A DNA stretch of 64,000 nucleotides, from assembly GCA_963700055.1 (NCBI GenBank), contig CAVOWH010000004.1, positions 369,468 to 433,467 on the forward strand, given 5' to 3'. The position numbers and the translations under genes were made by a program. Below, one piece after another: positions 3,400 to 36,107 of this stretch (within the stretch, counting starts at the first letter, position 1; the number at the start of each line of letters is the position of its first letter). The notes beneath the pieces are model-generated. The model ran no database searches, was not told the origin of the DNA, and saw only the letters and a list, made by a program, of their open reading frames with translations. This DNA comes from an uncultured delta proteobacterium. Lineage in GTDB: Bacteria > Desulfobacterota > Desulfobacteria > Desulfobacterales > SpSt-501.

Positions 3400-4833
3400 T
3401 CAAGCAGTGTCCGGATCGGGAATTCTACACAGAGAGGATGCATCGGATTTAATTTTTTTATACAGCTCGAGCGTGGCGACGGATGGTTCGACATCCAATT
3501 CAGCCCGTAAAGCCTGCGCACATTTGCGATAGGCCTTCAACGCCCGGTCACGGCGTCCGACACATTGGTAACAGCACATCAACCGCCGGTATATTTCCTC
3601 ACGGCAGTTGTCTTTTTCCAGAATGGCTTTGCAAATGCTAATAGCTTCTGAAAAGCGGCCTAATTGAAATCGGTTTTCACTGATTTTTTCGAGAGTGACC
3701 ATGAAAATTTCTTTCAAGTTTTCTCTTTCGAGAGTGGACCAATCTTCATAAGGTTCATCCGACAAAAAATCGTCGTGGTAGATGGCGGCTATCTGATCGT
3801 AGAATTCCGCAGCTGCGCTGAGTCCAGTTCTGCGTTCGATGCTCTGGGCTTTCCGCCAGAGGACCTGGAGCTCCCACACATCGCTCCAAATTTCTATTTC
3901 CGGATTGATGGAATAGCATTCGTCCTTGAAGACAATGTATTCTCTTGATGGGTCAAGTTGCTGAAACCGTTTTCTCAAACCGTGAATGGCGACGTTTAAG
4001 CTGTTGCGCGCGGATTCAGGTATCGATTTGGGCCAAAAAACATCAATCAGGACATCGCGATAAATGGGTTTATTGGAGTGATAGGAAATGTAAGCAAAAA
4101 TAGATTTACCCTTTTTGCTGGGCCATTCATCAACCATTCGGTCATTGATCATGGTCTGAAAACGTCCCAAGAAAAAGACGCACATCCATGCTGCATCTCG
4201 TCGCTTGCGGGTATGATCTGTATCATTCCAGGTCGCCCGCTCTACCTTTGAGGAGGCATTCGTGAGGGAATCAGTCGAGGCAGAAGCGTCTGGCTCTGCT
4301 TCGCTTATCGAAGAACCCCTTTCGGGGTCAGCCGGAAATCCAACCTTGATATAGCCCTGGCTGCTCGACCGAAGCTGCAACCAAAGATTTTTCAGATTGA
4401 ACCGGGGGGCAAGTGCCGGCGGATTGTCGGATATTCGCTTGGTTCCCATCAGCGAAACAATTCTCTCCGTGATATCCAGCAACTCTTCCGGGTCAGTTCG
4501 ATCGGTAACGATATCCCGGGCCCCGGCCCTAAAGGCTGACAGAATAAGATCGGCAGTAGGCTTTTTAACACAGTAGATCACCGGAATGGAGGGATAGTCT
4601 GATTTAAGAGTGCGAATGAGCGAAATACTGCGGTGGCTATCCGATGTCTGTCCAACAAAGACCAAGGCGACCGGAAAACAAGTGATGATCCGTCGAGACA
4701 AGAATTCGTTCTGAGTAAAAACAAGTTGATACTGCGAACTCAACACGTCACGCAAGCTTTTACCGAAGGTGTCATCTGGATCCACCATTAGAATTATGGT
4801 GACATTAGAGGGAGTTGAAGAGAAAGGATCCAT
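3400..4833 (-). CDS. SARP/BTAD-family transcriptional regulator with N-terminal receiver-like domain
   Basis: N-terminal CheY-like fold (ILMVDPDD...). Central winged-helix signature VFWPKSIPESARNSLNVAIHGLRKRF. C-terminal BTAD/TPR-like region (YEDWSTLERENL...RALKAYRKCAQALRAELDVEPS). Confidence 0.75.
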   Translation of the reverse strand: MDPFSSTPSNVTIILMVDPDDTFGKSLRDVLSSQYQLVFTQNEFLSRRIITCFPVALVFVGQTSDSHRSISLIRTLKSDYPSIPVIYCVKKPTADLILSAFRAGARDIVTDRTDPEELLDITERIVSLMGTKRISDNPPALAPRFNLKNLWLQLRSSSQGYIKVGFPADPERGSSISEAEPDASASTDSLTNASSKVERATWNDTDHTRKRRDAAWMCVFFLGRFQTMINDRMVDEWPSKKGKSIFAYISYHSNKPIYRDVLIDVFWPKSIPESARNSLNVAIHGLRKRFQQLDPSREYIVFKDECYSINPEIEIWSDVWELQVLWRKAQSIERRTGLSAAAEFYDQIAAIYHDDFLSDEPYEDWSTLERENLKEIFMVTLEKISENRFQLGRFSEAISICKAILEKDNCREEIYRRLMCCYQCVGRRDRALKAYRKCAQALRAELDVEPSVATLELYKKIKSDASSLCRIPDPDTA

Positions 4834-5526
4834 AACGTTAACCGTTTGAAGCCTTCATTCGCAACATGGCCAAGAAACAGGCACGGATTTCATGAGCCTG
4901 CTTTTCTCTAAGTTGGCGACAGTCGCACCTTGGAAAATTGGAGGAGAAGGAGAAGGAGAATAGAAAGAATGCTTATTTCATCCGTATTGAACGAAATGAA
5001 TCTCTGGACATCAGGCGTTCACCGACCATGCGCTGCTCAATTGGCTGTCGCTCAATCATACTCCCTCCTAAAAAAGGGCCCTTGGAGCGGACTGCTGACG
5101 TCCTTCGGTAAATCGAATTGCTCAAACGCTAAGTATTGTCGCAAATCGTGTAACGCTTCAGGTTTAGGCTTGGTTTAAGACGGGGAGGTGAGGACGTTAC
5201 GGTGAATTCTTGGCAACCCTGTGCGACACCTCCGAAACCGTAAAATGGAGGAAAGACCTCCGCTCGATTCCGAAGGTTTTCCTCGTCGACGCCTGCGAGG
5301 TTAGCTGAAGGGCTAGGGCCGAAGAGGTTACCCCTTGCCGTCTGGCGATTCGCCCCAAAAACTTGGGTCCCCCGCTCCCGGCGGGCGGCCGGGATTAAGC
5401 GATGCCACCTTTTTAGTCTACTCGTTGATTTTTGTCAAGCAGCTTTGAGAATCTGGGCGTGGTTGAGATTAGTTGCCAATCAGATCCGCAACGCGGCCGA
5501 TTGCAGCGGGCGAGCGCGTTCAAACG

Positions 5527-14381: not shown

Positions 14382-15254
14382 TCAACCCACTATAAGCGTT
14401 GACTTGTCGATTGTCACCGGAAGCGCTACCGCGTTGTGTGGGTCGTGGAGCCACTCCCACATTGAGTTTGACGCCTGTGCCCAGCTGTTGAGGTCGAGCG
14501 ACTCTCTATGACTAATCTCCACCCGAAATTTGGTTCTCAGATCCGCCTCCAGCTCCCGAGGTCCCCGGTTCACCCACCCCAGAATTACGAACTCGTATTC
14601 GCCTGCCGACCACAGCAACTCCCAGTCCAGACGCGGCCCTACAAACTGCACACCGAGCAATCGGCTCTCCTCCGGCCCCAACTCCAGCACCGCCGCATCG
14701 GATATCTTCTCCATCACTTGGCCTCCAGGCAGGAACTCGTAGAAGAGGTTCCACGTAAACTGGATGCCCCGTTTGCCGGACGGCGTCACCATCACCTCCA
14801 GCCGCTGGATGCGTCCGGGTTTCCGACTTTCGTTGATCAGATGGCCGTCCAGATTAAACGCCGGTGTTTTCACATTGTCCTTCTGCACCACGATGCCCAG
14901 GAAGTTCCGCGGGTGCATGCGGACGATGATGTCTTCCAGTTGCCGTTTCACGAGCTGCACCGCGGCGAGACGCGGAGGCCGCAGAATCCGTTTCAGCGAT
15001 TCGAATATCTGTTCCATGTTGGTCCAGGGCTTCTTCAGGTAGTGCTTGGAGACCAATATCACGCAGAACCGGGACTGCTTCCCGTAAACCTCGTGAAGCT
15101 TGACCGAAAGGTCTTCCCCCCAGAGCTCCTCGAATTCGTCGTAGAAGATCGAGTAGCCCGCCGTCTGAATCCGCGTCGCCAGTTCCCTGGCATGTACTCG
15201 GTCCTCCCCTGCATAGGACAGTGCAACATCGTACTGCCAACCCCATGACCCCAT
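14382..15254 (-). CDS. TIR-domain protein with an unknown ~170-aa C-terminal domain
   Basis: ATG at 15254 with a GAGGAG SD. YDVALSYAGEDR, SIFYDE, WGEDL, RFCVILVS and KPWTNME fit a bacterial TIR domain. I recognise nothing in the remainder. Confidence 0.75.
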   Translation of the reverse strand: MGSWGWQYDVALSYAGEDRVHARELATRIQTAGYSIFYDEFEELWGEDLSVKLHEVYGKQSRFCVILVSKHYLKKPWTNMEQIFESLKRILRPPRLAAVQLVKRQLEDIIVRMHPRNFLGIVVQKDNVKTPAFNLDGHLINESRKPGRIQRLEVMVTPSGKRGIQFTWNLFYEFLPGGQVMEKISDAAVLELGPEESRLLGVQFVGPRLDWELLWSAGEYEFVILGWVNRGPRELEADLRTKFRVEISHRESLDLNSWAQASNSMWEWLHDPHNAVALPVTIDKSTLIVG

Positions 15255-15504
15255 CTCAATCTCCTCGGAAACCGATTCTGCATTTCGATTCCACAACTCC
15301 CCCGGCCCCTACTACTATGGAACAAACGTCAGTGCTTTTCTTTCTGGACGAGTGTTAAGGTAGAACAAGCGGGGGCTAACGCAATTAGATTGACCCGCAT
15401 ATTTCAATGTGTTGCCCTCCAGTTATCTTGGCATGTTATGCGGATCGGCATAAGAAGCTCCTTTTCAAAGCCCGTCCACGTGGCTGCTGACGCCTCCTGG
15501 GCCC

Positions 15505-27482: not shown

Positions 27483-27617
27483 GCCCGCGGCCGAAGAGAA
27501 GACCGCATGCGTCCCGCCGCGGCAGCAAATTTCTTCTGAGGCGTCTGGACAAACTGCGGCCAAACGACTAAGATGGCCGTCGGTTGCGATCCCAACGCGG
27601 GCAAGAAAGGCAGCGTA

Positions 27618-28016
27618 ATGATCTACATCGGCAAATTCCTTTACACCACCAACCAGCAGGCGAAGGATGAGGCCCAACGGCGTCACGGCGAATTCAATCT
27701 GCTCATTTCCGCCAAGGACAAGAACGCCGCTGTTGAAAATTTCAAGCAGCGCATCGACGACGCCCGAACAACGACCGGTTTCTTTGAGGGGGATTCCTAC
27801 GTATACATGTTGCACATCCTGGAGATGAAGGAGATGCCCGCGGACCGCGCCAAGATGTTCAACTTCCAGTCCGTGGCCGGCGATCCCGTCATGCCGTTCA
27901 TCAGTTGTCAGGCGCCCTCCGGCGAAGGCGACGGATGCCGGATTCTAAATTGGCAGAAAAACAGGCCCGGAGTCGACGGTCAGGCCGCCACGCCATTCAT
28001 GCAGTTCAGCACATGA
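27618..28016 (+). CDS. hypothetical protein
   Basis: ORF from MIYIGKF. No recognisable family. Confidence 0.4.
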   Translation: MIYIGKFLYTTNQQAKDEAQRRHGEFNLLISAKDKNAAVENFKQRIDDARTTTGFFEGDSYVYMLHILEMKEMPADRAKMFNFQSVAGDPVMPFISCQAPSGEGDGCRILNWQKNRPGVDGQAATPFMQFST

Positions 28017-28256: not shown

Positions 28257-28366
28257 TCACCCATCTTACGGCACGGCTCGGTGGTTTAGGTCGGCTGCCT
28301 CCAGTCATGCAATTTATTCATCAACTGCAGATCGGTTGACCATTATATCCATTATCGGAGGGTAGC

Positions 28367-30016
28367 ATGAAGAGAGTGAAATCTGCGGGTACCATTCTTT
28401 TGGTCCTGTGGCTGCTCGTTTTTATTGCCCACCCCACAGGGGCCAGCCCCGGTCCGGCCGAGGGTGAGCAGGCTCCGGGGAGAGAAATGGCGCAGCAGGC
28501 CACCAAAGGAGCCAAGCGCTGGATCACGACGGATCATTCCAAGCACGAGACCCTGAAGCAGACGTTCGCATCGGGGCCGGAGGTGACCAAGGCCTGCCTG
28601 AGCTGCCATTCGGAGGCGGCCGCCCAGATCCACAAGACCATCCACTGGACCTGGGTCGACCCGGCCTCCCCCAAGGACAAACCCATGGGCAAAGGAGCGC
28701 TCACGGTCAATAATTACTGAGTGAGCATCCACAGCAACGAGGCTCGTTGCACCTCCTGCCACATCGGATACGGATGGAAGGACAAAAGTTTCGATTTCAG
28801 CGATGCGAGCAAGGTGGACTGCCTCGTCTGCCACGAGCAGACGGGCACCTACAAGAAGTTCCCGGCCGGCGCCGGCAACCCCGTTAAGGAACCCATCCTT
28901 TTCCCAGGCGACGGCATCACCTATCTGCCGCCGGAATGGAACAAGGTGGCCCAGAGCGTGGGACGGCCCAGCCGGGAGAACTGCGGCGTCTGCCATTTCT
29001 ACGGCGGCGGCGGCGACATGATAAAGCACGGCGACCTGGACTCTTCGATGACCAAGCCGAATAAGGCCCTCGACGTCCACATGGGCGTCGACGGCAAGAA
29101 CTTCGACTGCACGCGCTGCCACACCACGAGCGCCCATCAGGTGGCCGGCCGCATCTACTCGACCCCGGCCGCCACCGAGCGCAGGACTCTGGTGCAGGAC
29201 GACCTGACACCCCGCATCACCTGCGAGTCATGCCACACCGCCACCCCGCACAAGCCGGGTGTGAAGGCCAACGACCACACCGACAAGGTGGCCTGCCAGA
29301 CCTGCCACATCCCGGAATTCGCGCGCGCGTTGCCCACCAAGATGCGCTGGGACTGGTCCACGGCCGGCCAGAAGAAGGACGGCAAGCCTTACAAAGAGAA
29401 GGGCCCGCTGGGCACCACGGTGTACGACACCCAGAAGGGCAATTTTACGTGGGATAAGAACGTCAAGCCCCAGTACTTCTGGTACAGCGGCCGCATCGAC
29501 GCCGTGTCCCTGAAGGACCCGGTCGACCCGACCAAGCCCGTGGCGCTCAACTGGCCGGTGGGCCATCCCGAGGACCCCAACGCCCGCATCGCGCCCTTCA
29601 AGGTCCACACCGGCAGGCAGCCTTACGACACGGTCAACAAGACCATGCTGGTCCCGCACCTCTTCGGGCCGCCCGACTCCGCCGCCTACTGGGCGAAGTA
29701 TGATTGGCAGATCGCTCTCGAAAGCGGCATGAAGAAGGCGGGGCTGCCCTTCAGCGGCCAGTTCGATTTCGTCGAAACCAGCTATGTGTTCCCGACCACC
29801 CACATGGTCGCCCCGAAGGAAAAATCGGTCAGCTGCAACGAGTGCCATACCAAAGAAAACAGCCGCATGGCCAACATCAAGGGCGTCTACCTGCCGGGCC
29901 GCGACGGCAACAAGGTGATCGAAGTCCTGGGCTGGGCGGCGGTGCTCGGCTCGCTCGCCGGCGTTCTGCTGCATGCGTTCGGTCGTGCGGTCAGCCGCCG
30001 CAAGAAGGAGGGTTGA
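28367..30016 (+). CDS. octahaem c-type cytochrome, tetrathionate-reductase (Otr) family, with in-frame UGA (candidate selenocysteine) at 28718-28720
   Basis: Two contiguous same-frame ORFs (28367..28720 and 28721..30016). Signal peptide only on the first. Eight CxxCH motifs in total (CLSCH, CTSCH, CLVCH, CGVCH, CTRCH, CESCH, CQTCH, CNECH). C-terminal TM anchor. A cytochrome b gene follows. Confidence 0.7.
28734..28750 (+). promoter_or_regulatory. SECIS-like hairpin GCAACGA-GGC-TCGTTGC, 13 nt downstream of the UGA
   Basis: A perfect 7-bp stem (or 6 bp with an AGGCU loop) and a G-rich apical loop. The 17-nt size and the spacing resemble the minimal bacterial SECIS. Confidence 0.4.
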
Positions 30017-30019
30017 TCG

Positions 30020-30691
30020 ATGAACGCAAACGACACCTGCAAGATGGTGAATATCTATCTTTACACCCGCTACGAGCGGTTCTGGCACTGGCTGCAGAGT
30101 GCCCTGATCGTGGTCCTGCTCGTGACCGGGTTCGAGGCCAACGGCCTGTACACGCTCTTCGGTTTCAAGATCGCTTTCGACATCCACAACTTCGTGGGCA
30201 TCACCTGGCTCATCGCGTTCGCCTTCTTCGTCTTCTGGGTGTTCACTACCGGCGAATGGCGCCAGTACATCCCCACCACCAAGAAGATGCTGCTGGTGGT
30301 GCGCTATTACATGTACGGGATTTTCCGCGGCGAACCCCACCCGGTCCCGAAGCGCAAGGACGCCAAGCACAACCCTCTGCAGCGCCTGGTCTACTTGAGC
30401 CTGGCGGCGTTCCTGCTGCCGGTGCAGATGCTGAGCGGGCTGCTGTACTGGACCTACAACTCCTGGGGTGCCTGGGGCCTCGGCTGGATGTCGCTGAAGG
30501 TCGTGGCGGCCGTGCATTTGGCCGGCGGCTTCGCCATCCTCTCGTTCCTCGTCGTGCACATCTACATGATCACCACCGGCCACAGCCTCAGCGCCCACAC
30601 CCGGGCCATGATCTGCGGCTGGGAGGAAGTCGAGGAAAGGGAAGCGATCGAGGATTGGGAAATCAAATCGCGCGTCAAGACCCCGGTCTGA
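30020..30691 (+). CDS. membrane cytochrome b (PhsC / FdhC-like di-haem b subunit)
   Basis: 223 aa. RYERFWHWLQ at the start of TM1, four to five TM segments and conserved His in TM helices. It starts 4 nt after the cytochrome c stop. Confidence 0.75.
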   Translation: MNANDTCKMVNIYLYTRYERFWHWLQSALIVVLLVTGFEANGLYTLFGFKIAFDIHNFVGITWLIAFAFFVFWVFTTGEWRQYIPTTKKMLLVVRYYMYGIFRGEPHPVPKRKDAKHNPLQRLVYLSLAAFLLPVQMLSGLLYWTYNSWGAWGLGWMSLKVVAAVHLAGGFAILSFLVVHIYMITTGHSLSAHTRAMICGWEEVEEREAIEDWEIKSRVKTPV

Positions 30692-30728: not shown

Positions 30729-30805
30729 AAGATTGATCCTTGCTAAGCCGCCTCTCCCTCCCACCGTCCGAGGCTTCTCGCGGTTCTTCAGAATCTGCCC
30801 GCTGG

Positions 30806-31171
30806 CTATTGAGGTTTTGCTGATTTCCGGGCAGTTTCTTTCAGGCAGTCCACGAACGATTCGGATGCTTCTTTTTGTTGAAGGTCGCCGCTCTTTTTAA
30901 GATAGTTCAAAAATATTTCCAGGACCTGATCCGGGGTCATCTCAAAAGTGGTATCAAGTACAGGAGCCATCGAACAGACTTCTTTCTTGGTCTCCAGGTG
31001 ATCCAGACAGGTCGAATACATGCCTCTAACGAACCCGTTGACGAATCCGTTCTGGTAGGATTGAGGCGCTTGTAGGAAATCCGCTCCGGTCATGGCCGAA
31101 TGGGCAACCGTCCCGCATGACAACGCCCAACCCAGTAGGGTGATGCTCAGCAGACGCTCTCTCCATTGCAT
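30806..31171 (-). CDS. secreted hypothetical protein
   Basis: Start at MQWRERLLSITLLGWALSCGTVAHSA (signal peptide). No family recognised. Confidence 0.4.
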   Translation of the reverse strand: MQWRERLLSITLLGWALSCGTVAHSAMTGADFLQAPQSYQNGFVNGFVRGMYSTCLDHLETKKEVCSMAPVLDTTFEMTPDQVLEIFLNYLKKSGDLQQKEASESFVDCLKETARKSAKPQ

Positions 31172-31352
31172 TGATAATCTCCTCTGTTGAGGGCTTTCAG
31201 CCAAACTATCGAGTTGGTCCATCGAGTGTCAGTATCCCAACTTCCAAGGCACCACCCTGCCTGACCCTACCTTCCGGATTCGGAGTGTCCCCATCCATCC
31301 CAGCGAGATTCTTTTGGAATGCAGGAACCGTGTCTTGATTGCTGATTTAATA

Positions 31353-33118
31353 CCTGAATTTTGCACGCAAATCACCGTTATGATCGGCGGAGGGAAAATT
31401 TTCTTTCAACCCCGCTGATCGTGGGTGGGGAACCAGCAGCCCTTCAGCCGGGGCTATCGCTGGGTATCCAGCAGCTAAAAGTCGTCTTCAACATAATGAT
31501 TTTGCGTTCCTTTTTGGTCGTGCAAGAAAATTCTTGCCTACACCGGCAGGGCAAAACGCTGCGGCCAGCCGCCAGGGGCAAGCCAGGGTTTTGTTTGGCC
31601 GCGTCGGTTGTCTAAAAAACGGAGAAAGGAAAGCATCTCCGGGGTTCTGGCATCGTGAACCGAGTACTTGATTTTGTCTCGATTGCCGTCTTGGACCACC
31701 TTGGCGGCGATAAACAGCAACTTCAGCCGAGCGATCCGAACGGTGTTGGCCACGATGCCCTTCATGACGCCGACCTTTTTCGAGGCGGCCGACACACTTT
31801 TCTGGGCCAGCATCTTCATGTAACGCCAGATGTTGTAGGCCAGCATCACGATCTGGAAAAAGGCGTAGTTGTTTTTAAACTTGACCGAGGGGATCATGTC
31901 CAGACCCTCACGCTTGGCTTCGCCCACCAGGTTTTCGACATCGGCGCGCTGGTCGTATTCGACAATGATGTGGTGGGCAGCGCCGGCCAGGTTCGTGCAG
32001 AAGATCCGATAGGTGTATTGGTCATCTTCGAACAGCACGCACTGCTGGGGTTGCGTCGATGGCGGTTTGTGCTCCTTTGCAATGCGCATGGCCACAAAAC
32101 GGCAGGCGTGGTCCCAACCGCCTGGCCGATAAAAGCAGCTATTGAATTCAACCGCCTTTCGCTTCCAGGGGCGATACCAACTGCCGGGATCAAAGACCGG
32201 GGTACATCCGCGATTGGCAATGATAAAATCAAAACCGGCCGCCAGCGCCGCCTGGACACTTTCCCAGGATAGGAATTCGCCGTCGGCCCGAAGCAGCACC
32301 TCCCGAACGCAGCCGGGCAGATGGTTTTGGATATCGGCAATAAAGGCAGCGGCTTCTTGTCCGGAAACGGTGACGCCTTTTCGCAGTTTGCCGACCAGAT
32401 ACTCACGGGTTTCTTCGATGAAACCCAATAGCGGTCGCAGCCCAAGCTTGCCCCGGTGCTGGGTGTTGTGGCCCTTGCGGGCGCCCTGCTGGTTGCCAAA
32501 AACCGTTTTGACGGTGGTGTCGATGTTGATTCGGATCCGGGCATATTGCAAACCGCACAATTGCCAGACCCGCTCGCGCAGCATATCGGCGAGCTTCAAG
32601 ACCGATGTGGCCTGATTGATTCCCAGGCTGTCCAGGTAACGCCAATAGGTGCTGGCCGCCGGAAGCCGGCTGACTCTGAAAAAGCCGCAGAGCATCGCGT
32701 CCAAGCGAACGTATACGAAATGCCAGATCCGGTTGAACCCGATAAACAGTAGCATCAAAATGCCTGCCATCATCGAATAGTGGCCCAGCTTGGGCTGCCG
32801 GCAGGGCGGCTGGTAAGCAAAGTGAAAAATTTCCCGAAAACCGACCAGATCGAAAAATTTAATCAGCGCCAACAGCCCGCCAAATGGGCTCAATTGCTCG
32901 CTGCAGGTCTCAAATTCGGTGGAAGCGTTGATTCTTCTGGCCCTGGCGCGATGTGCACAAGATCCTTTACCACCGCGGCTTTTCCTGCTAACCTTTTTTC
33001 GTCGTTTTACCATCTGGGTACCTCCTGTTATAGCTGTTTAGGTTTGGCCAAACCGTTGCTATGACAGGATCCCAGATGGTATTTTATTTTTCAACCCTTA
33101 TGCCGTGCAAAATTCAGG
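31353..33118 (-). mobile_element. intact IS1380-family insertion sequence (1766 bp) with 15-17 bp terminal inverted repeats and a 5-bp TAATA target duplication
   Basis: IRL CCTGAATTTTGCACG at 31353-31367 is the exact reverse complement of IRR at 33104-33118. TAATA sits at 31348-31352 and again at 33119-33123. A single transposase ORF lies inside. Confidence 0.8.
31538..33013 (-). CDS. IS1380-family DDE transposase
   Basis: 491-aa uninterrupted ORF. The basic N-terminus, the SPFGGLLALIKFFD motif, and the element size, CC-starting IRs and 5-bp TSD all fit IS1380. Confidence 0.8.
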   Translation of the reverse strand: MVKRRKKVSRKSRGGKGSCAHRARARRINASTEFETCSEQLSPFGGLLALIKFFDLVGFREIFHFAYQPPCRQPKLGHYSMMAGILMLLFIGFNRIWHFVYVRLDAMLCGFFRVSRLPAASTYWRYLDSLGINQATSVLKLADMLRERVWQLCGLQYARIRINIDTTVKTVFGNQQGARKGHNTQHRGKLGLRPLLGFIEETREYLVGKLRKGVTVSGQEAAAFIADIQNHLPGCVREVLLRADGEFLSWESVQAALAAGFDFIIANRGCTPVFDPGSWYRPWKRKAVEFNSCFYRPGGWDHACRFVAMRIAKEHKPPSTQPQQCVLFEDDQYTYRIFCTNLAGAAHHIIVEYDQRADVENLVGEAKREGLDMIPSVKFKNNYAFFQIVMLAYNIWRYMKMLAQKSVSAASKKVGVMKGIVANTVRIARLKLLFIAAKVVQDGNRDKIKYSVHDARTPEMLSFLRFLDNRRGQTKPWLAPGGWPQRFALPV

Positions 33119-33137
33119 TAATAATCAAAAAAAAGAG

Positions 33138-33191
33138 AGGTGTCATATCTCGATTATTGATTTAATAGTCGATAATCGAGATATGACACCT
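33138..33191. repeat. perfect 20-bp inverted repeat (hairpin) with a 14-nt spacer
   Basis: AGGTGTCATATCTCGATTAT at 33138-33157 and its exact reverse complement at 33172-33191. It directly abuts the truncated IS630 transposase remnant. Confidence 0.7.
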
Positions 33192-33201
33192 ATTACTTGG
33201 C

Positions 33202-33802
33202 GAGGAGGAGTTTGTTCTGAGCGCCGATGAAAAGACCAGCATCCAGGCACGACGCCGCAAGCACCTCAGCTATCCGCCTCAACCGAATTCGGTGATGAAA
33301 GTCGAGCACGAGTACACCCGCTGCGGGGCGTGGGCCTACATGGCTGCCATCGATGTGCACCATGCAAAATTGTTCGGCCGCTGCGAGACACGCAATGGCA
33401 TCGCCAGTTTTGATCGACTCGTCGAACAGGTGATGACCCAGGCGCCCTATCGCCGGGCCAAGCGTGTCTTTTGGATTCTCGACAACGGCTCCGCCCACCG
33501 GGGGCAACGCTGCATTACCCGGCTTCAAGGCCGGTACCCCAAACTTGATTGTCGTTCATGCGCCCGTGCATGCGAGTTGGCTGAACCAAATTGAAATTTA
33601 CTTCTCGATCCTGCAGCGCAAGCTGCTGACCCCGAATGATTTTAAATCGCTAAAGGATCTTCAACAGCATCTGATGGAGTTTCAGAACTACTATGAGCAG
33701 ATCGCCAAGCCCTTTGAATGGAAATTCACCCGCCAGGATTTGACAGCTCTGCTCAACAAGCTAAAACCGGCGTCACTCACTATCGAACGCCTCGCAGCAT
33801 AA
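33202..33802 (+). pseudogene. IS630-family (DDE_3) transposase, N-terminally truncated and frameshifted
   Basis: It begins at ..EEEFVLSADEKTSIQAR (the start of the catalytic domain, so the HTH part is missing). Frame A reads ..ILDNGSAHRG..RYP and frame B continues NLIVVHAPVHASWLNQIEIYFS. The shift lies in the CCCCAAAC run near 33536-33543. Confidence 0.75.
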
Positions 33803-33833
33803 AAATACGTGAGCGAATTGATGAAATGATGTA

Positions 33834-34567
33834 CTAAGCCCCGCGAGCAGAAGTTATCGTTCCCACCCGATCTTCAAATTCTTTATAGGCCGCTGTCAGC
33901 ATGCCGAGGAAGTAATTCCACCACGGTCGAAGGTCGTGCCTGCCTTTATGCCAGCCCTGAGAACTCTTGTATAAAGCATCGTAATACGTTTCCTTGCTCT
34001 CCTCGACGATACGTTCGAGGCTTATGTACCTTCCAGCTTCATACCCTGTTTGATAAAGCAGCAGCAGGGAGAGAAGGCGCCCTATGCGGCCGTTGCCGTC
34101 TTTGAAAGGGTGAACACATTCAAAATCGAGTACGAAAGTGGCAATCAGCAACAAGGGGTCTGCTTCTTTTCTTTCCACTTTCTACCCTTTTCGTCAGTGA
34201 AGCGGTAAAGCGCACGATGCCAGTCCAGGATGAGCTCAGTCGAAAGTTAAAGGCGGGCATGATTGGCGTGCACAGATGCAAGAACATCCCGGTACCCCGC
34301 CACTTCCTGTTCAGAGCGGTCACGCGGTTTGGCTTTCTTTGAAACAAGGGCTTCGACTCTCCCTGGGGCGACTGTTATTCCCTCGATTCTGTTCGATGAT
34401 TCAGTGCTCTGCACTATGGCAACGCGGCGCAATGTAGTAAGGACTTCAGGGAACTGGTCGGCATAAAGGGTCTGACGGCCCCTGAACTCACCCAATAGCC
34501 GCATTGCCATCAGAAGCGCATGAGAGAGCGGCGTTTCAAGATAATAGCCATATTCAAATGATTTCAT
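33834..34567 (-). pseudogene. Fic/DOC-family protein, disrupted by frameshifts and a short internal deletion
   Basis: An N-terminal fragment ORF ends at ..HANHARL*. A middle piece (LSTELILDWHRALYRFTDEKG) sits in another frame. The C-terminal ORF carries the Fic motif HPFKDGNGRIGR. Confidence 0.75.
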
Positions 34568-34617
34568 GATTTATGCTTCCCATAAGGTCACTTGGCCTGC
34601 CCTCACCATTATTGGCC

Positions 34618-35115
34618 TCATGAGCGAAGGTTGCCTGGCATTTTCCCCAGCAGCTTGCGGATATCCTCCTCGTGCAGGCGCACGTGTTCGTAGGCCCAGC
34701 GGATGAAGCGGTCGAGTTTGCCCTGGCCGTGAAAGGCGTGCAGGCCTTCGCGGTCGAGGTCTTCCTCCTTCATCTCGCGGACGATGCGGATGGTCTCCCG
34801 GCGCACGGCTTTGAAGCGTTCGATCAGCTCATCCAGGGTCAGGCCGTCGAACTTGGGTGTCTGGGAGCGGTTGAAGCGCTCGAAGTCGAAGTCCGGCGGC
34901 GCGCCCGGGCCGCCGGACAGCAGGTTTTTGAAAAGCCACTGCATGGAGCCCTCGATGGCGACGAAGTGGGCCAGCACCTGCCGCACCGTCCACTGCGCCC
35001 CGTCCGAGTAAAGTTGGGTGCGCAGCTCCTGCGCGCTCAGCGACTGGAAAAGCGATACGGTTTCAGAAAGGTTATTATCAAGCTCGGCTGCGATTGCATT
35101 CCGGCGGTCTGTCAC
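34618..35115 (-). CDS. DinB-family (DinB_2) protein
   Basis: 165 aa. Four-helix-bundle His triad context (QVLAHFVAIE ... YEHVRLHEEDI). Confidence 0.75.
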   Translation of the reverse strand: MTDRRNAIAAELDNNLSETVSLFQSLSAQELRTQLYSDGAQWTVRQVLAHFVAIEGSMQWLFKNLLSGGPGAPPDFDFERFNRSQTPKFDGLTLDELIERFKAVRRETIRIVREMKEEDLDREGLHAFHGQGKLDRFIRWAYEHVRLHEEDIRKLLGKMPGNLRS

Positions 35116-35220
35116 AGCACCCCCCGAAGTATAGAAGGTTCTGGCCCGGCCCGGGGCCGGATCCAGCTATCCTCTTGAATATTCATTGGCGTATCTGCTC
35201 GCCCCTGTGTCTTTGACGAT

Positions 35221-35457
35221 CTATTTTAAAGATTTGATTTCTTCAAATGGCTTGTTTTCGTTTTTTTCGTCAACGAATTTCACGACACCGGTTACGGTGT
35301 CAATTACATAAACATATACCCAGTCACGTTTGAGGCAGGTGGAGATTTGGTATCGTCCGACCAGCGTGCTATTCGGGCCGCTCCCCACTATAAAAACCAG
35401 GCCAAGCATAATTAAGGCGCCAAGAACCAAATAAAAAATGGGCCGGCTCATTTTCAT
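35221..35457 (-). CDS. small membrane-anchored hypothetical protein
   Basis: ATG at 35457 with a GGAGG SD. One N-terminal TM helix. Confidence 0.4.
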   Translation of the reverse strand: MKMSRPIFYLVLGALIMLGLVFIVGSGPNSTLVGRYQISTCLKRDWVYVYVIDTVTGVVKFVDEKNENKPFEEIKSLK

Positions 35458-35473
35458 CGCGGTCCTCCCCTTG

Positions 35474-35770
35474 CTAATCCGCAAGACCGTATTGGTAGAC
35501 TTCGTAAGTGGTTTCACGCCCCAGCAGGATATCGATCTTGGATTGGAGCTCCTTTCTCTGACTGCTGTTCAACCAGTTCTCCCAATCCTTGAAAGACTGC
35601 CAATTGCTGATAACCAGAAACTCCTCGGGGTTATCTATTCTCCGCAACGTCTCACCGGAAATATAGCCCTCTTGCTGCATGGCGAGAATCCGCAGCTGGC
35701 GTGAAAGTGCGACCATGGTCTGAGCCATGTCCAGGGGTAAACGCCGTTTGATCAAAATCTTGACTGCCAT
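35474..35770 (-). CDS. antibiotic-biosynthesis-monooxygenase (ABM) domain protein
   Basis: ATG at 35770 with a strong AAAGGAGG SD. EGYISGETLR....PEEFLVISNWQS.KDWENW fits the ABM ferredoxin-like fold pattern. Confidence 0.7.
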   Translation of the reverse strand: MAVKILIKRRLPLDMAQTMVALSRQLRILAMQQEGYISGETLRRIDNPEEFLVISNWQSFKDWENWLNSSQRKELQSKIDILLGRETTYEVYQYGLAD

Positions 35771-36107
35771 TATGACCTCCTTTCGAATGCGCATACGCTT
35801 CAACCGAAATTCCCCATGGAAACAAAAAACCCCATATCCCGGTAAGATATGGGGGCGTAGCTTCTTGGCTCATTGCCGCCTCGCTTGAAGGTTCTATGCC
35901 TGGCTGCTGGTTATCATCGTATCTCTGCTGGAGTCGGAGGTCAAGGATCGATTTGGCGTGAAGGCTTCAGCTCCATCCTGACGCGCCGGTGCTGGGCCAC
36001 CAAAGCCCCGGCAACGACGCTCCTTCAAAGCCCGCACGCACATCGACGGGCCCTTTGGGACGCACAGGCAAGGAGGGGCGCGAATGGGGCAGGGCTCGGG
36101 TCGGGAT

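Follow-up and report, generated by a model that had tools for sequence, protein, structure and literature searches.

The 64,000-nucleotide (nt) stretch of contig CAVOWH010000004.1 analysed here (the window), from an uncultured delta proteobacterium, contains on its forward strand two adjacent open reading frames (ORFs) that are, in our reading, a single gene, otr, encoding an octahaem cytochrome c of the OTR (tetrathionate reductase) family, in which an in-frame UGA at codon 118 is recoded to selenocysteine (Sec). We assign a probability of about 0.93 to this reading, based on comparison of the DNA with homologous genes: the column under the UGA is otherwise occupied by Cys, the TGA recurs at the same column in many independent genes, a hairpin resembling a selenocysteine insertion sequence (SECIS) accompanies the TGA form, and TGA serves as an ordinary stop elsewhere in the window. 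The Sec-type OTR family is catalogued but uncharacterised, and the gene described here is a further, unannotated member; what the present analysis adds is the description of two SECIS types and of a recent Cys-to-Sec gain among syntenic Cys-type orthologues.

Reading frame and family membership

The frame extends from ATG 28367 to a TGA stop at 30014-30016 and is interrupted by a sole internal in-frame stop, TGA 28718-28720, which separates 117 upstream codons from an intact frame of 431 downstream codons. The upstream part carries the only signal peptide of the gene, as judged by eye from the translation, together with the first of eight CxxCH haem motifs (residues 77, 128, 152, 206, 248, 286, 310 and 490). 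The remaining seven motifs lie in the downstream part, which opens with a GTG at 28721 that is preceded, on inspection of the sequence, by nothing comparable to the GGAGG ahead of ATG 28367, and which is likewise devoid of a signal peptide by eye. Read through, the product comprises 549 residues and ends in a hydrophobic helix (residues ~517-539) with RRKKEG after it; the next gene encodes a cytochrome b.

Profile and homology searches, for which the query carried C in place of U118, matched the NCBIfam model of the OTR family, TIGR04315, over positions 1-440 of 440 with 624.5 bits (cutoff 375), and aligned query residues 61-497 with Shewanella oneidensis OTR (PDB 1SP3) at an E value of 9.4e-129, with all eight CxxCH motifs of the window protein aligned in the same order. 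The crystallised OTR chain (443 residues) is aligned only as far as its residue 418, corresponding to query residue 497, i.e. before the anchor. Judged by these alignments, the window protein is clearly an OTR-family octahaem cytochrome. A first-pass annotation, made from the letters of this DNA, had proposed a single frame split only by the TGA, a lone N-terminal signal peptide with haem motif 1, a downstream part with seven CxxCH motifs but neither Shine-Dalgarno nor signal peptide, and an overall layout typical of tetrathionate-reductase-family octahaem cytochromes, with a C-terminal anchor and an adjoining cytochrome b gene; each of these elements is borne out by the translation and the searches.

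Conservation of the UGA column

By residue count in the 1SP3 chain, the UGA corresponds to Cys64, between Lys56 and C74-x-x-C77-H78. Wherever this column can be seen in the best 120 full-length homologues it is Cys; in 70 metagenome loci, with identities as low as 41%, the codon is TGC or TGT. A DNA pattern that forces the TGA, NN[FY]-TGA-(8 codons)-RCTxCH, was scanned over species genomes and matched in at least 120 of them, against a chance expectation of ~0.25 by our own information-content estimate. Among the matches listed, all are OTR homologues, the frame is open on both sides of the TGA in nearly all (three to four look truncated), and nearly all carriers belong to the Desulfobacterota; the isolates among them include Desulfosarcina cetonica, D. 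alkanivorans, Desulforhopalus vacuolatus, Thermodesulfatator autotrophicus, Pseudodesulfovibrio pelocollis and NaphS2. A metagenome sample drawn by protein similarity, and so unbiased with respect to codon, comprised eight TGA genes and the 70 TGC or TGT (TGY) genes. Together with the species genomes, of which there are at least 120, these eight metagenome contigs raise the number of independent genes with TGA at the same column to at least 128. One of these contigs (L124), from a different metagenome, encodes a protein 95% identical to that of the window (94% at the DNA level), is syntenic with it, and has the same TGA and hairpin; sequencing error is therefore ruled out. None of the homologues examined is truly split at the TGA with a second signal peptide.

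Within the window, TGA is the stop of nine of the 15 Pfam-supported genes, including the otr and cytochrome b genes. TGA is therefore an ordinary stop in this DNA, the genetic code is the standard one and the recoding is local; genome-wide reassignment of UGA was considered and is rejected on this ground. A listing of TGA-joined ORF pairs in the window, the DNA of which is 58% GC, proved too noisy for finding other selenoproteins.

The hairpin downstream of the UGA

The window hairpin has a perfect stem of 7 base pairs (bp) and a GGC loop, begins 13 nt after the UGA, and forms the core of the minimum-free-energy fold; the first codon of haem motif 2 doubles as the last codon of its stem. Among the matches listed, Sec-type genes always carry one of two hairpin types after the TGA. 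Type 1, the form present in the window, is identical over its 17 nt in the Sec-type genes of 79 other species; of its six wobble positions, five have an entropy of 0 and one of 0.1, compared with 0.3-1.7 bits in the flanks, and the codons AAC GAG GCT CGT TGC have zero wobble variation. One compensatory type-1 variant, A-U to G-C, was observed (in L055). Type 2, CUGGUGC-AGGU-GCACCAG, lies 17 nt after the UGA and occurs in 36 species. When 33 distinct type-2 sequences were aligned, 99.1% of the cells proved to be paired, with one compensatory pair and two with G-U changes. In the metagenome sample the hairpin was present in eight of eight TGA genes and in none of the 70 TGY genes (Fisher p = 4e-11). 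The Cys types read NEPRC where the Sec types read NEARC, a Pro-to-Ala difference that is explained at the level of the RNA by the change of the loop from GCC to GGC.

In Escherichia coli fdhF the minimal SECIS is an upper stem-loop of 17 nt, some 11 nt downstream of the UGA. The hairpins described here are alike in size (17-18 nt), in position (13 nt after the UGA for type 1, 17 nt for type 2) and in having a G-rich 5' loop; they differ in that the stem is perfect, without a bulged U, and that the type-1 loop has only 3 nt (GGC), and their binding by SelB is putative. We take the type-2 apex, UGC-AGGU-GCA, to resemble the apex of E. coli fdhF, UGC-AGGUC-UGCA. The window and type-2 hairpins both display the small, G-containing apical loop directly downstream of the UGA that has been used as a criterion for bacterial SECIS elements (PMC1088965), and in the genes sampled they are present only in UGA forms. 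Thus, the 17-nt hairpin GCAACGA-GGC-TCGTTGC that the first-pass annotation had pointed out at 28734-28750 stands as described, and is linked to the TGA form. The comparisons that it had suggested, i.e. inspection of the homologue column under the UGA, a search for TGA at that column in some homologues and a search for homologues split there, gave, respectively, an invariant Cys, a recurrent TGA and no split gene, and its selenocysteine reading is upheld.

Two further observations concern these hairpins and the genes that carry them. A lower stem at 28712-28775, formed between the UGA region and the CxxCH codons, lengthens the window hairpin; a similar lower stem is seen in the type-1 genes L035, L050, L057, L097, L103 and L112, and is not family-wide. 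The Sec-type OTR homologues (L001-L120; for example, L048 from Desulfosarcina alkanivorans, L037 from NaphS2 and L017 from Thermodesulfatator) have at least three architectures: an eight-haem form that, like the window protein, has a C-terminal membrane helix (A); a 'GPSPYT' form that lacks the anchor and has about five additional CxxCH motifs at the N-terminus (B); and a shorter form, also without an anchor (C). An 'NWCRC' motif bearing the type-2 SECIS was found in both anchored and short architectures.

Position of U118 relative to haem 2

In OTR, Lys56, which lies outside the CxxCH motif, is the axial ligand of haem II, and C74xxC77H78 is the attachment site of this haem, the presumed active site (PMC3769277). 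The GK motif of the window protein (K109) is invariant in all homologues, and K109 is very likely the equivalent of Lys56; the equivalence falls short of proven because the spacing from the Lys to the Cys or Sec is one residue longer here than in OTR (9 versus 8 residues), with HMMER placing the Lys one residue off register. U118 replaces the invariant non-haem Cys of the OTR family, and is located nine residues past K109 and ten before the first Cys of the haem-2 CxxCH motif. Since the Sec thus follows at nine residues the Lys that matches haem-2 ligand Lys56, it is plausible from the alignment that it adjoins the active-site haem. In the OTR literature searched, no statement on Cys64 was found, ligation by Lys56 and C74xxC77H78 alone being confirmed.

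Alternative explanations

A single base change converts TGC to TGA, the closest full-length relatives (79-90% identical) all have TGC or TGT, and the exact 431-residue downstream product is absent from the gene collection, so that the TGA might be regarded as a nonsense mutation, or as an assembly or sequencing error, in a Cys-type gene, making the locus a pseudogene or an artefact. We consider this very improbable, given that the independent contig L124 has the same TGA, that the TGA is accompanied by three specific changes which complete a 7-bp hairpin absent from Cys-type genes, and that the 431 downstream codons are intact and retain all seven haem motifs. Still less credence can be given to the proposal that there are two genes, one for a 117-residue monohaem protein and another, from GTG 28721, for a separate 431-residue heptahaem protein. 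Mechanical ORF calling does yield exactly these two ORFs, and GTG is a legal start codon; however, haem attachment needs export, for which the downstream part has no signal peptide (nor has it a Shine-Dalgarno), the break interrupts a conserved stretch that separates the Lys ligand from its haem motif, and the homologues are continuous across it. The UGA might also be read through without selenium, by a near-cognate Cys or Trp tRNA or by SelB-delivered Cys, the hairpin then being only a readthrough or pausing signal. Sequence analysis cannot tell Sec from another residue at U118, and no Sec machinery was seen within the window; yet the carriers are Desulfobacterota, a classic Sec-rich group, RefSeq annotates members of the family as Sec, and the hairpins bear the hallmarks of bacterial SECIS elements, with a small G-containing apical loop right after the UGA (PMC1088965). 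Selenium-free decoding is, accordingly, no more probable than the two-gene proposal.

Some results weigh against the assignment of Sec, or against what is built on it. The single-sequence fold of the hairpin is modestly better than that of shuffled sequences (z = -2.18), such that its significance comes from the cross-genome comparison rather than from the single sequence. Rfam gave no match at the gathering threshold over the window, nor at E <= 10 over 28600-28900, which we attribute to bacterial SECIS elements being too short for Rfam models. True covariation is sparse, at one compensatory pair per hairpin type; because protein and stem constraints act jointly, the invariance of the hairpin is largely forced. 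No tRNA-Sec was found within the 64-kilobase (kb) window, which has no tRNA at all, and selA, selB and selD were not found among the 32 window ORFs scanned against Pfam, so the ability of this genome to insert Sec is assumed from its relatives. Further, we infer both the catalytic role of the Sec and the substrate.

Origin of the selenocysteine form

Phylogenetic analysis places the window gene and L124 as a Sec pair nested inside Cys-type orthologues (bootstrap 196, 198 and 200 of 200), whose gene order matches that of the pair across more than 20 kb. Outside the pair, the Sec-type gene that comes closest among the species genomes listed is only 62-67% identical. The tree supports a recent Cys-to-Sec gain in the window lineage, from a Cys-type orthologue, since the alternative, at least four losses, is far less parsimonious than a single gain. 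In the closest Cys orthologues the sequence is GC AAC GAG CCG CGC TGC, in which five of the seven stem pairs are already in place; conversion needs approximately four point mutations, i.e. TGC to TGA, CCG to GCT (Pro to Ala plus a wobble change) and CGC to CGT.

Gene conversion from a Sec-type paralogue was considered as another route and is rejected. The 90-nt core around the UGA is closest to the Cys orthologues (87% identity, compared with at most 83% to other Sec-type genes), and is therefore not an imported patch. Separately, several Cys-type genes encode NEARC, namely L156 (~1083-1140), P0036, P0040, P0061, P0092 and P0093; L156 reads GAG GCC CGT TGC, which gives a 6-bp stem. These genes may be pre-SECIS intermediates or relics of Sec-to-Cys reversion.

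Features and neighbouring genes

The features of otr and its partner gene are collected in Table 1.

Table 1. Coordinates of otr, its elements and the adjoining cytochrome b gene in the window
Feature	Position	Strand	Basis or remark
Predicted Sec-containing OTR-family octahaem cytochrome c, single coding sequence	28367..30016	+	549 residues, U118; translation, profile search
Shine-Dalgarno GGAGG, 5 nt before ATG 28367	28357..28361	+	read directly from sequence
Signal peptide, Sec-type (export), MKRVKSAGTILLVLWLLVFIAHPTGAS, extent approximate	28367..28447	+	translation, judged by eye
Haem motif 1, CLSCH, residues 77-81	28595..28609	+	motif reading
Lys109 of GK motif, presumed OTR Lys56 equivalent	28691..28693	+	GK invariant in homologues
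UGA read as selenocysteine U118, column of OTR Cys64	28718..28720	+	homologue comparison
Putative type-1 SECIS hairpin GCAACGA-GGC-UCGUUGC	28734..28750	+	fold and comparison across genomes
Haem motif 2, CTSCH, catalytic-haem attachment (OTR C74xxC77H78)	28748..28762	+	1SP3 alignment, PMC3769277
Haem motifs 3-8	28820..29848	+	CLVCH 28820, CGVCH 28982, CTRCH 29108, CESCH 29222, CQTCH 29294, CNECH 29834
C-terminal transmembrane anchor VIEVLGWAAVLGSLAGVLLHAFG, then basic tail	29915..29983	+	translation; inferred from hydrophobicity
Cytochrome b subunit gene	30020..30691	+	PF01292, 93.8 bits

The cytochrome b gene starts 3 nt past the otr stop, with a GGAGG lying within the 3' end of otr; its best NCBIfam match, below cutoff, is to thiosulfate reductase cytochrome b subunit. 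The otr-cytochrome b pair is also present in L121-L125 and L134. Directly upstream of otr is a 147-residue ORF without a Pfam match (27573-28016, + strand), which may be part of the otr operon; an unannotated ORF of similar size is found at the same place in L121, L122 and L123, and L124 has conserved DNA there. Just downstream of the otr-cytochrome b pair lies a DDE transposase (31538-33013, - strand), and the region ~30730-36100 fails to align with the otherwise syntenic L125 and L134.

A selenium-handling cluster adjoins the otr-cytochrome b pair in L123 (4184-9275), which carries a Cys-type orthologue (87% identical). It encodes a SelD-like AIRS protein, a YedE-like Sulf_transp protein, two TusA proteins and Se_S_carrier; the SelD-like protein, of 316 residues, may be cut short at a Sec codon. 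This neighbourhood is lacking beside the Sec-type otr of the window and of L124, and the DNA downstream in L124 does not align with the L123 locus beyond otr-cytochrome b.

Elsewhere in the window there is a cyclic di-AMP (c-di-AMP) riboswitch at 5275-5411 (- strand; RF00379, 81.9 bits). The next sizeable ORF after it on the same strand (3400-4833) is a BTAD/Trans_reg_C regulator-like gene, which is atypical for this riboswitch. A 304-residue TIR-domain protein, possibly with a role in defence or signalling, is encoded at 14382-15296 (- strand).

Relation to known systems

TIGR04315 is listed as a selenoprotein family in a recent review (AEM 2026, PMC13188914), with 'GenBank annotated' as the sole source and WP_331457571.1 as the example, and with no motif, SECIS description or primary reference. 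Full-text literature searches found neither a primary description of a Sec-type OTR nor an OTR paper mentioning Sec. Judged by this listing, the window protein and the annotated Sec members share the same family model and have one Sec each; the window lineage differs from them in being a separate, recent Cys-to-Sec gain.

Compared with S. oneidensis OTR (SO4144, 1SP3), the window protein has the same order of eight CxxCH motifs, the GK Lys motif and the NNF/Y-C block before haem 2. The differences are that OTR has Cys64 where the window protein would have Sec, that the crystallised OTR chain is without a C-terminal membrane helix, and that a cytochrome b gene accompanies the window gene. Tetrathionate, nitrite and hydroxylamine are reduced by OTR in vitro, activities that are at most putative in the window clade.

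The nearest precedent for a Sec beside a catalytic haem would, by analogy, be MccSep of Geobacter sulfurreducens (ExtKL, GSU2937-2936), a pentahaem selenoenzyme that reduces polysulfide. In MccSep the Sec is at the distal pocket of a His/Cys-ligated catalytic haem, and polysulfide reduction requires it (PMC13510729). Both are predicted or known periplasmic multihaem cytochromes c with one Sec, a UGA followed by a SECIS-like hairpin, and Sec- and Cys-type homologues found mainly in the Desulfobacterota. The families are, however, unrelated, and in an NCBIfam scan the window protein had no match to NF040886 (the MccSep family) at E <= 0.001. MccSep has five haems and the window protein eight; the catalytic haem of MccSep is His/Cys-ligated and that of OTR Lys-ligated; and the Sec of MccSep is in a C-terminal immunoglobulin-like domain. 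The direction of change also differs, with Cys types of MccSep emerging from Sec clades, but the window Sec type emerging from a Cys clade.

Proposed mechanism and significance

During synthesis, SelB with Sec-tRNA(Sec) would presumably bind the 17-nt hairpin, which is built from the codons for S-N-E-A-R-C, and direct recoding of the UGA. The protein would be exported via its signal peptide and held at the membrane by its C-terminal helix, facing the periplasm. The cytochrome b, presumably a co-transcribed quinol-oxidising partner, could then pass electrons from menaquinol to the haem chain and on to haem 2. A small sulfur, selenium or nitrogen compound would be the substrate and would be reduced at the Lys-ligated haem 2, beside which the selenolate may act as a nucleophile or redox partner; the most likely chemistry is S-S cleavage of tetrathionate, thiosulfate or polysulfide. 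For the Sec as the catalytic nucleophile, we consider the odds to be roughly even. A broader proposal, which we advance more tentatively, is that the residue at the Cys64 position is a catalytic nucleophile beside a Lys-ligated haem, and that Sec forms linked by cytochrome b to the quinone pool, and widespread in sulfate reducers, constitute a second, mechanistically distinct class of multihaem selenoenzyme, active in S-S or Se-oxyanion reduction. In the same proposal the S-N-E-P-R-C peptide, the codons of which supply five of seven stem pairs, primes repeated de novo Cys-to-Sec conversion, with that of the window caught almost in the act.

Automatic gene callers split the gene into ORFs of 117 and 431 residues; as a consequence, a Sec-type OTR gene in a metagenome from a sulfate-reducing community can easily be misannotated or missed. 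With ~87% nt identity, the syntenic Sec and Cys orthologues provide a natural experiment on the birth of a SECIS within coding sequence. The occurrence of Cys and Sec at one position indicates that OTR Cys64 has a redox function, probably in catalysis, and offers a starting point for identifying the physiological substrate of OTR-family enzymes. Work on MccSep indicates that a Sec beside a catalytic haem can define new respiratory chemistry (Sci Adv 2026, PMC13510729); the Sec-type OTR, which is far more widespread than one organism, is the obvious next candidate.

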